Positions 14,917-15,972 of a stretch of 64,000 nucleotides of DNA are shown in pieces (position 1 is the stretch's first letter; every line of letters begins with the position of its first letter). Origin of the DNA: Candidatus Nomurabacteria bacterium RIFCSPLOWO2_01_FULL_42_17 (lineage in GTDB: Bacteria; Patescibacteriota; Minisyncoccia; Phycocordibacterales; UBA9973); the NCBI GenBank assembly GCA_001785985.1, contig MFVE01000005.1, positions 112,533 through 176,532 of the forward strand, written 5' to 3'. The position numbers and the translations under genes were made by a program. The notes under the pieces were generated by a model. It was not told where the DNA came from, made no database searches, and saw nothing but the letters and a program-made list of their open reading frames with translations.

Positions 14917-15591
14917 TCATATCTTCTCACTAATAGTTAATTCCTTTATTCTTTCAATCCAACCCTTTATTGTTAGAAAAAGTTTTGTATCACTAATATT
15001 AATACTGAATGTACCAAATGGTAATGTAAATCTTTTTTGCAAACTTGCACTACTAGGTTTTATATAAGTTTTCTGAAATTGATTTCTGGATATTCCTGCA
15101 ATTTTAGACCAATATTTTTCAGTCTTTTCTACATCAGCATGAGCAAATGTATGAATATTACCACGAAATTTTTCTTCTGGAACTTTACATATTTCTCTAA
15201 AAAATCTCATCATCATTTTTATTACAATGGGGTCACTATTAGATAATCTTGCTGTGCCTCTTTCTGTCTTTCCACCTTCACCTAAATATAAAATAATACC
15301 AATCAATTTTAAATGTTCTAAAGAAATATAATTGAAGTCTTTTTTTGCCGCGTCTATTATAATTTGCCTTTTCGCCTGTTCATTAGAAAGACGAATTAAT
15401 CGTCTCTTTTCTATAGACTCTACGCTCCTGCCTCTTTCAGAAAGGCCTTTTTTTTGCTCTTTTGTAAGTATAATATCTCGGACCCATAAACTTACACTTG
15501 ATTTTGTGAGACCCGCCTCTTTAACAATTTGATTAATAGAATATCCTTTTTTGCGAAGAACGCGCGCTTTTTCTTTCTCAATAAGTTTCAT
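14917..15591 (-). CDS. HTH-domain protein with a LAGLIDADG-like motif (putative degenerate homing-endonuclease-like protein)
   Basis: N-terminal resolvase/transposase-type HTH (KGYSINQIVKEAGLTKSSVSLWVRD). LKLIGIILYLGEGGKTERG resembles the first LAGLIDADG motif of the 34286 ORF (LCGILIGDGGITKR). The gene is AT/K-rich and lies next to tRNA genes. Confidence 0.4.
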   Translation of the reverse strand: MKLIEKEKARVLRKKGYSINQIVKEAGLTKSSVSLWVRDIILTKEQKKGLSERGRSVESIEKRRLIRLSNEQAKRQIIIDAAKKDFNYISLEHLKLIGIILYLGEGGKTERGTARLSNSDPIVIKMMMRFFREICKVPEEKFRGNIHTFAHADVEKTEKYWSKIAGISRNQFQKTYIKPSSASLQKRFTLPFGTFSINISDTKLFLTIKGWIERIKELTISEKI

Positions 15592-15681
15592 AAGTAGAGT
15601 ATATCATTTCTGACCTATTGCTTACTAGTCTATTTATCCACATCTTGAAATATATCGTCTTTTATTATATAAATAAAGTAT

Positions 15682-15757
15682 GCGGGATTAGCTCAGTTGG
15701 TAGAGCGATCGCTTTACACGCGAAAGGTCGCAGGTTCAAGCCCTGCATCCCGCACCA
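15682..15757 (+). tRNA. tRNA-Val (anticodon TAC), CCA encoded
   Basis: GCGGGATTAGCTCAGTTGGTAGAGC...anticodon loop TTTACAC...GGTTCAAGCCCTGCATCCCGCACCA. Confidence 0.85.
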
Positions 15758-15832
15758 GCTCTCGTAGTTCAATGGATAGAACAGAAGGTTTCTAACCTTC
15801 TAATGTAGGTTCGATTCCTACCGGGAGCACCA
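15758..15832 (+). tRNA. tRNA-Arg (anticodon TCT), CCA encoded, directly abutting tRNA-Val
   Basis: GCTCTCGTAGTTCAATGGATAGAAC-AGAAGG-TTTCTAA-CCTTCT...GGTTCGATTCCTACCGGGAGCACCA. Confidence 0.8.
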
Positions 15833-15868
15833 AATTAGAAAAAACAAACTGCTTTGTTTTTTCTAATT
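15833..15868 (+). terminator. Strong rho-independent terminator after the tRNA pair
   Basis: Perfect 16-bp stem AATTAGAAAAAACAAA-ctgc-TTTGTTTTTTCTAATT. Confidence 0.75.
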
Positions 15869-15972
15869 TGGTGCTGACCGCAGCGATGTTTTGCAAGCAT
15901 GCAAAACCGCGAGGGGCGGGCTGCGAAAATTTCGAGCGGCGGCGAGAAATTATTTGTAGCCACCACAAAATT

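Follow-up and report, generated by a model that had tools for sequence, protein, structure and literature searches.

In a 64,000-nucleotide stretch of the genome of Candidatus Nomurabacteria bacterium RIFCSPLOWO2_01_FULL_42_17 (the window; contig MFVE01000005.1), an open reading frame (ORF) at 14917-15591 encodes a helix-turn-helix (HTH) domain followed by a LAGLIDADG-like domain, and it lies next to, and divergent from, a tRNA-Val/tRNA-Arg pair. With slightly better than even confidence, we consider this ORF a free-standing homing-endonuclease-type gene specialised on the flanks of tRNA genes, usually the 5' flank, and the gene most likely behaves as a mobile nuclease gene for which tRNA genes serve as landing pads. 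The gene-context evidence is strong; that the product is a nuclease, and where it would cut, we infer. The product is 100% identical to the hypothetical protein A2917_02715 of the same organism.

The family to which this protein belongs is large. A word-indexed search returned 712 homologues at E ≤ 0.001, of which the best 120 showed 72-100% identity and lengths of 220-306 amino acids (mostly 220-228), and an exhaustive profile search returned 4,708 clusters (50% identity, E ≤ 1e-3), with the full-length members listed being mostly about 215-235 amino acids long. Members were found in Patescibacteria, in Actinomycetota including Streptomyces, and in one Anaerolineae metagenome-assembled genome; those of Streptomyces (L038-L085, e.g., 2800-3678 of L049, where L-numbers denote loci of relatives and WIN the window locus) are about 290 amino acids long. 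The N-terminal HTH of the Streptomyces members appears to be duplicated. Scans against Pfam, NCBIfam, PADLOC and PHROGs assigned the window ORF to no named family, returning weak HTH matches or nothing, with zero matches for its C-terminal 140 residues, and the curated libraries recognised a weak N-terminal HTH only (HTH_7, E 0.001). The HTH portion resembles the DNA-binding domains of Tn552 Bin3 and Tc3. Of the two profiles that a sequence-only reading of this DNA had put forward, HTH_23 matched 51 of 73 diverse family members, and Pfam LAGLIDADG_3 left the ORF unmatched.

The assignment of the C-terminal part was based on conservation, profile comparison and structure prediction. In an alignment of the 73 diverse members (28-63% identity), R13, W36, G106, W161 and G193 were invariant, and G16, I22, S34, G98, Y102, E105, K108 and N118 were conserved in at least 90%, giving the core motif GxxLYWGEGxK...VxFxNSDP. 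The family profile matched the second LAGLIDADG motif of I-DmoI (E 3.3e-4), with LYwgEGsK opposite LYVAEGDK of I-DmoI and with E105 and K108 falling on EGDK. The AlphaFold2 model obtained with a deeper family alignment (predicted local distance difference test score 95.1, predicted template modelling score 0.78) consisted, in order, of three short HTH helices, a long linker helix (57-83), a helix (91-105) that terminates at E105, and an alpha/beta domain; it contained the alpha-beta-beta-alpha-beta-beta-alpha core fold of LAGLIDADG proteins, and its LAGLIDADG-type helix ends in a conserved acidic residue followed by glycine (E105, G106). Profile and predicted model thus agree with the sequence-only reading, which had described an HTH plus LAGLIDADG-like ORF divergent from the two tRNAs, and as far as alignment and modelling can show it, the product is a single LAGLIDADG domain protein in which the Glu and the Lys of the catalytic positions are kept.

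The strongest regularity of the family was its position. Among 85 loci (80 from a scan of one genome per species and five metagenome loci), a tRNA gene was located within 112 nt of the family ORF in 82, and the other three were two contig edges and one rearranged variant. In the 25 loci of Paceibacteria-type genomes the neighbour was tRNA-Val(UAC), 60-112 nt upstream of the ORF start and divergent in 22 of them; in Acidimicrobiia and other Actinomycetota it was tRNA-Asn(GUU), which abutted or overlapped the ORF 3' end or lay at most 37 nt from it; in 40 Streptomyces loci it was tRNA-Gln(UUG), 0-29 nt after the stop codon and followed by glmU and prs; and in single lineages tRNA-Trp, tRNA-Ala(GGC) or tRNA-Gly(UCC) was adjacent. 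The family proteins were grouped by tRNA type and not by host, and the tRNA-Ala(GGC) members of Nealsonbacteria and Moraniibacteriota shared 57% identity with each other and at most 40% with all others compared. With about one tRNA per 18 kb in such genomes, we estimated the chance of such adjacency to be about 2% per gene; because at least nine independent gene-tRNA pairings were found, adjacency by chance is excluded. The earlier hunch that the proximity to tRNA genes was not coincidental was therefore strongly borne out, and it holds family-wide both here and for the second tRNA-linked family of the window described below.

To this regularity of position is added a polymorphism of presence. 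We examined eight of the closest relatives, by pseudouridine synthase, on long contigs (65-80% identity to that of the window), and in six of them (L086, L087, L089, L170, L171 and L173) the tRNA-Val site was empty, with the gene order pil104, tRNA-Val, tRNA-Arg, while the remaining two had a locus without tRNA-Val. A six-frame hidden Markov model (HMM) search of the six empty-site relatives (8.7-10.7 kb each) found no family member, so that the gene is present at a defined site in some genomes and absent from it in related ones. In comparison with L089, the window carries an additional segment that comprises the ORF and its upstream region, followed by an inverted block that has 85% identity to L089 in reverse orientation, the flanking genes having 68-71% (Table 1). 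In L004 there is a plain insertion of the gene between the stop codon of pil104 and tRNA-Val, which replaces the 26-nt spacer that in empty alleles carries the -10 region of the tRNA promoter. A stretch that is well conserved among the empty alleles, GTCGTTGACCC.TC.CT.TAAAAATG.TAATTTAAA...GCGCGRTTAGCTCAG, is the obvious candidate for the endonuclease target.

Table 1. Features of the window, and of the L089 empty site, that are referred to in the text.
Feature	Position	Strand	Details
HTH + LAGLIDADG-like ORF	14917-15591	-	224 amino acids, ATG start (ORF list)
HTH DNA-binding domain	15466-15591	-	residues ~1-42
LAGLIDADG-like domain	14929-15330	-	residues ~88-221
LAGLIDADG-type helix motif LKLIGIILYLGEGGK	15268-15312	-	residues 94-108
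Glu105	15277-15279	-	last residue of LAGLIDADG helix; Lys108 after
Segment missing from L089, 756 bp	14909-15664		ORF + 73 nt upstream; blastn, L089 vs. window
Inverted block, 311 bp	15665-15975		tRNA-Val, tRNA-Arg, hairpin, GC-rich element; blastn vs. L089
L089 empty-site junction	L089 4660-4730		pil104 3' end, spacer, tRNA-Val 5' end; GTCGTTGACCC..TAAAAATGCTAATTTAAATAAGCAAAAT + GCGCGATTAGCTCAG
Divergent intergenic region ORF/tRNA-Val	15592-15681		90 nt; conserved blocks (27 loci compared)
tRNA-Val(UAC), CCA encoded	15682-15757	+	ARAGORN; Rfam 70.5 bits
tRNA-Arg(UCU)	15758-15832	+	ARAGORN; Rfam 71.2 bits
Perfect 23-bp hairpin	15826-15875	+	arms 15826-15848 / 15853-15875, 4-nt loop CTGC (repeat search)
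G+C-rich two-hairpin element	15876-15975	+	directly 3' of tRNA-Arg hairpin
RluA-family pseudouridine synthase	14215-14901	-	15 nt downstream of ORF stop; PF00849
rplS (L19)	13694-14167		after RluA-like gene
XRE-type HTH + two-motif LAGLIDADG_3 ORF	34301-35338	+	345 amino acids; Pfam LAGLIDADG_3 E 3e-11
tRNA-Ser(UGA)	35301-35389		overlapped by 3' end of 34301 ORF

To see how the endonuclease-like gene diverged in comparison to its neighbours, pairwise identities and nonsynonymous divergence (dN) were compared with those of L19. L009 and L013 showed 94% identity in L19 and 60% in the endonuclease-like gene (dN 0.042 vs. 0.325), and L011 and L021 showed 93% and 57% (dN 0.059 vs. 0.381), while the window and L001 deviated in the opposite direction, with 63% in L19 and 78% in the gene (dN 0.310 vs. 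0.154). The ratio of dN in the gene to dN in L19 accordingly ranged from 0.5 for WIN-L001 to 6-8 for L009-L013 and L011-L021, and was about 1 in congruent pairs such as L005-L008 and L018-L020 (L19 87-88%, gene 84-85%). The pairwise matrices and the dN values point to a history of the gene that is incongruent with that of the flanking host genes. In Streptomyces the gene evolved faster than glmU (mean pairwise identity 69% vs. 86%, rho 0.33). The tRNA-Val sequence is identical in L001 and in L005/L008 although their L19 identity is only 58-60%, which, like the conserved intergenic blocks, hints at co-transfer of the flanks; against this, it differs between the window and L006/L007. Two other accounts of the identities were considered and dropped. 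A hyper-conserved housekeeping gene, suggested by identities of 75-78% where L19 had only 54-58%, was rejected because close genomes carry very different alleles and the nearest relatives are without the gene. Recent horizontal spread as the explanation of the high identity was unsupported, as synonymous divergence (dS) had reached about 1 or more in the closest pairs too, the lowest values being 0.97-1.05.

These observations suggest how such a gene could spread. The protein would form a dimer through its LAGLIDADG helix, by analogy to single-motif enzymes of the I-CreI type, with Glu105 binding the catalytic metal and the HTH lengthening the sequence that is recognised. It would cut gene-less alleles at a long site made up of the conserved tRNA 5' end and the upstream spacer, and repair of the break from an occupied allele would copy in a cassette of about 750 bp, made up of the gene and a promoter region, which would bring its own tRNA promoter and destroy the cut site. 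In the window, the cassette lies directly upstream of the rluA-like and rplS genes and is probably the source of their promoter, as the tRNA block now points away from them, and this dependence would stabilise the cassette.

Several observations weigh against this explanation. The dN/dS of the gene was 0.04-0.18, i.e., it is under strong purifying selection, and its dN in congruent pairs is close to that of L19, whereas selfish homing endonuclease genes of the classical kind usually degenerate in the homing cycle once they are fixed; no obviously degenerate copy was seen in the family. The dS values, close to 1 or higher, give no indication that the gene was transferred very recently. A tblastn search with the window protein and a Streptomyces member found no match among 50,697 phage and 72,556 plasmid records, and all 40 of the sampled Streptomyces loci hold the gene at one syntenic position, which gives it the look of a stable resident. 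Besides the insertion, an inversion sets the window apart from the empty sites, so its history is not that of a clean homing event, and the empty sites may instead reflect loss from an ancestral occupied state. As for the LAGLIDADG assignment itself, neither the ORF nor its C-terminal fragments had a Pfam LAGLIDADG match even at E ≤ 10, the 73 diverse members had none at E ≤ 0.01, and NCBIfam likewise gave none for the ORF.

The selection regime, the near equality with L19 in congruent pairs, the fixed position in Streptomyces and the absence from the phage and plasmid collections would all suit the main rival explanation, according to which the protein is a domesticated LAGLIDADG-derived regulator similar to WhiA, immobile and non-cutting, that binds the divergent intergenic region and controls the tRNA-Val/tRNA-Arg operon together with its own operon with rluA-like and rplS, and elsewhere the adjoining tRNA. 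So would the operator-like conserved blocks of the intergenic region, including TTATCCACA at 15634-15642, and the closeness of the gene to the pseudouridine synthase gene, which it overlaps or precedes by 15 nt. We nevertheless regard such a regulator as rather unlikely. WhiA (DUF199) has two degenerate LAGLIDADG domains that have lost the catalytic acidic residues together with a C-terminal HTH, and nearly all Gram-positive bacteria have it, whereas the window ORF has one LAGLIDADG domain, an N-terminal HTH and a patchy distribution, and retains Glu105 and Lys108; the catalytic-position Glu and the Lys three residues on are at least 90% conserved. Furthermore, among the eight near relatives examined, six are without the gene at the tRNA-Val site and yet have the same tRNAs and operon, the divergence of the gene is decoupled from that of its neighbours, and dedicated but dispensable regulators for the Val, Asn, Gln, Ala, Trp, Gly and Ser tRNA genes would be hard to explain.

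The correspondence between subfamily and tRNA identity, and the occurrence of the LAGLIDADG_3 family beside tRNA-Ser genes of three anticodons, could also be accounted for by an RNA-directed, maturase-like factor that binds or processes the adjoining pre-tRNA or an mRNA-tRNA co-transcript; RNA-binding LAGLIDADG maturases are an established class, and co-transcription is likely in the actinobacterial and tRNA-Ser loci because the stop codon is mostly 0-39 nt before, or inside, the same-strand tRNA. We hold this to be improbable, given that the HTH is of the transposase/resolvase DNA-binding type, that the window gene is divergent from its tRNA and therefore is not co-transcribed with it, that both tRNAs are intron-less and of normal length, and that gene-less relatives retain the same tRNAs. 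Less probable still is that the ORF is passenger cargo in what is left of an island that an integrase inserted at a tRNA gene, or that it neighbours the tRNAs by chance. Integration at tRNA genes is a classic phenomenon, in L001 and L003 tRNA-Val is separated from tRNA-Arg by a serine recombinase gene and a GIY-YIG gene, and in L002 the DNA upstream of the gene is unrelated from within the intergenic region onward; against this, the cassette is only about 750 bp, the window has no integrase, integrases typically use the tRNA 3' end whereas most loci adjoin the 5' side at 0-112 nt, and the independent pairings are far above the per-gene estimate for chance.

A second LAGLIDADG ORF of the window is also next to a tRNA gene. 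It was listed from 34286, and its true start is probably 34301. The sequence-only reading had noticed that the helix motif of the first ORF resembles motif 1 of this one; the likeness is real but weak, with a BLASTP E of 0.013 over 47 amino acids and, for the two family profiles, an hhalign E of 0.0016 at a probability of only 16%, collinear over the HTH and the first LAGLIDADG core. An HMM of one family does not find the other, and the family HMM found no paralogue of the first ORF within the window, so that, judged by their profiles, the two ORFs are distant superfamily relatives in separate families. The LAGLIDADG_3 family had a tRNA-Ser (GCU, UGA or CGA) within 86 nt in 75 of 80 metagenome loci (L090-L169), and all 55 loci with enough flank adjoined tRNA-Ser, which nearly always lay 0-39 nt downstream of the ORF end or overlapped it. 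A third LAGLIDADG-like ORF, of 225 amino acids, occurs between rplS and tRNA-Leu(GAG) in L170 (5232-5921) and L171 (7110-7799), with its stop 2-9 nt before the tRNA; it was matched by the LAGLIDADG_3-family HMM (E 1.6e-7 and 2.5e-4), and at this position the window has a 30-nt spacer only (13664-13693). A broader possibility, to which we give somewhat less than an even chance, is that these genes represent a widespread and hitherto undescribed class of bacterial HTH-LAGLIDADG genes of meganuclease type, selfish or semi-domesticated, with at least two or three families in Patescibacteria and in Actinomycetota including Streptomyces, whose subfamilies each keep to the flank of a single kind of tRNA gene (Val, Asn, Gln, Ala, Trp, Gly, Ser or Leu). 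The invariant tRNA gene would then be half of a long recognition site and a safe-harbour landing pad, and expression would proceed via the tRNA transcription unit.

In comparison to known systems, LAGLIDADG endonucleases, free-standing homing genes and LAGLIDADG genes in rRNA introns of the candidate phyla radiation (CPR) are already known (PMC11270868; PMC13011429), and in the literature we found no description of the present HTH plus single-LAGLIDADG family or of LAGLIDADG genes strictly tied to the flank of one tRNA identity. In contrast to the single-motif and two-motif enzymes I-CreI, I-CeuI, I-DmoI, I-Tsp061I and I-Vdi141I, the ORF goes undetected by the Pfam LAGLIDADG models, and relative to them it adds the N-terminal HTH, the long linker helix and an extra helix between strands 3 and 4. 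It is also free-standing in the chromosome beside a tRNA gene, outside any intron or intein. The closest functional precedent is SegB of phage T4, a free-standing GIY-YIG homing endonuclease located between tRNA genes that cuts the tRNA intergenic region ("intronless homing"), and promoters embedded in T4 endonuclease genes favour gene retention (PMC2988022), in the way proposed above for the window cassette. Both are endonuclease genes between or next to tRNA genes, presumptively so for the ORF; SegB, however, is of the GIY-YIG type and phage-borne, whereas the ORF family is cellular and chromosomal, spans several phyla and keeps to one tRNA identity per subfamily. The 34301-35338 ORF, annotated by NCBI as "LAGLIDADG family homing endonuclease", is similar in its order of HTH and LAGLIDADG, in its occurrence in Patescibacteria and in its position directly upstream of a tRNA, and differs in having two LAGLIDADG motifs (monomeric type), a length of about 340 amino acids, recognition by Pfam and a constant association with tRNA-Ser. 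The LAGLIDADG endonucleases of CPR rRNA introns and the group I introns of Patescibacteria tRNA genes likewise exploit conserved RNA genes, most of the tRNA introns being without endonuclease genes (PMC11270868; PMC13011429), but these introns interrupt the RNA gene, whereas the ORF stands next to an uninterrupted tRNA gene.

If the proteins are active, their thousands of sequence clusters would be a reservoir of compact meganucleases with an extra HTH reader, the probable targets of which (tRNA gene flanks) could be guessed from the genes around them, an advantage in discovering and engineering enzymes. Homing-type elements would then be seen to exploit tRNA genes without interrupting them, complementing the accounts of CPR rRNA and tRNA introns, and the recurrent small rearrangements near tRNA clusters in very reduced genomes would be explained. 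A conserved "hypothetical protein" of Streptomyces beside tRNA-Gln and glmU gains a name and a testable function. If the proteins are domesticated regulators instead, WhiA would no longer be the one case of a LAGLIDADG scaffold turned to gene control, and they would add a second, independent one.

The divergent intergenic region, which separates the ORF start from the tRNA-Val 5' end, contains conserved blocks, among them TTATCCACA at 15634-15642 on the plus strand and TATACTCTACTT immediately 5' of the ATG, and in the 27 intergenic sequences compared these recur at loci whose adjoining proteins diverge far more. Situated between the ORF and the putative promoter of tRNA-Val, the TTATCCACA block matches the DnaA-box consensus perfectly; it is kept in L001, L004, L006, L007, L009 and L013, has one mismatch in L010 and is absent from more distant loci. 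L001 and L002 share 100% identity starting about 6 nt upstream of the box, and farther upstream their sequences are unrelated. The box could serve as an operator for the HTH, bind DnaA or mark a recombination boundary. By eye, the hexamers that look most like a tRNA-Val promoter are TTGAAA (15645-15650) and TATAAA (15668-15673) with a spacing of 17 nt, from which transcription would start 1-2 nt before the mature 5' end, making the transcript almost leaderless; the promoter scan did not list them (15645-15681).

Downstream of the ORF, the RluA-like gene is a probable co-transcribed neighbour, and in L005 and L008 the ORF homologue and the pseudouridine synthase gene overlap or abut. Most close relatives (L086-L089, L171-L173; e.g., L089 5668-7374) have a gene of 567-568 amino acids without a firm Pfam domain in the interval between the pseudouridine synthase gene and rplS (14168-14214 in the window), and this gene is missing from the window and from L170. 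The serine recombinase (with a zinc-ribbon recombinase domain) and small GIY-YIG gene that separate tRNA-Val from tRNA-Arg in L001 (1610-2737) and L003 (184-2358), which represent a Taylorbacteria-type population, are another mobile insertion within the same tRNA cluster. In L004 no gene lies between RuvX and tRNA-Ser(UGA); at this place L086 and L089 have a DUF5652 gene, and the window has the 34301 ORF. Just upstream of RuvX, two small ORFs of 94 and 85 amino acids, one base apart (33250-33793, plus strand), look from the ORF list like a toxin-antitoxin-type pair.

The tRNA genes themselves are arranged as the sequence-only reading had stated, with no spacer between them: ARAGORN and Rfam agree on the two genes, and in the sequence itself the encoded CCA of tRNA-Val runs straight into G1 of tRNA-Arg (0 nt). 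The same arrangement occurs in L006 and L012, and in a Rfam search of 15500-16300 the two tRNAs alone reached the gathering score. The hairpin that follows had been described as a perfect 16-bp terminator stem; the pairing is indeed perfect, at 100% complementarity, but extends over 23 bp, and the terminator label could not be established, as the stem is A/T-rich except at its ends, GACCGCAG and no T-tract follows it (intrinsic terminators having a G+C-rich stem and then a U-tract), and a simple intrinsic-terminator consensus scan did not call it. Its 5' arm begins inside tRNA-Arg, with the last 7 nt of the tRNA, AGC-A-CCA (AGC, discriminator A, CCA). Equivalent long hairpins with different stem sequences were found in L005, L007, L011, L015, L087 and L089, while those of L016 and L086 are shorter; the part of the stem that pairs to the tRNA end co-varies, being AGCACCA/TGGTGCT in the window and GGCACAA/TTGTGCC elsewhere. 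A perfect 12-bp hairpin (54718-54744, CGCACAAAGTAT / ATACTTTGTGCG, 3-nt loop) likewise starts inside the 3' end of tRNA-Lys (54649-54722). Because it recurs in relatives with co-varying stems and at tRNA-Lys, the hairpin overlapping the tRNA 3' end is a feature that these genomes conserve at the 3' ends of tRNAs; it may act in termination, 3' processing or protection. The 23-bp palindrome had also been considered as the endonuclease target, with two half-sites around 4 central bp, and was set aside because such hairpins occur with or without the endonuclease-like gene and a similar one is found at the tRNA-Lys 3' end.

The G+C-rich element next to this hairpin matched no Rfam family. It has 83-87% identity in L089 and L007 and is absent in L087, and look-alikes of the same shape and different sequence were seen in L015, L086 and L011. 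Its first hairpin shows compensatory changes (UUUUGCAA/UGCAAAA, UUUUGCG/CGCAAAA, UUUUGUG/CACAAGA and UUUCGCG/CGCGAAA), and the element travels with the tRNA block on inversion, and it is a candidate for a small RNA or a processed 3' trailer of the tRNA operon.

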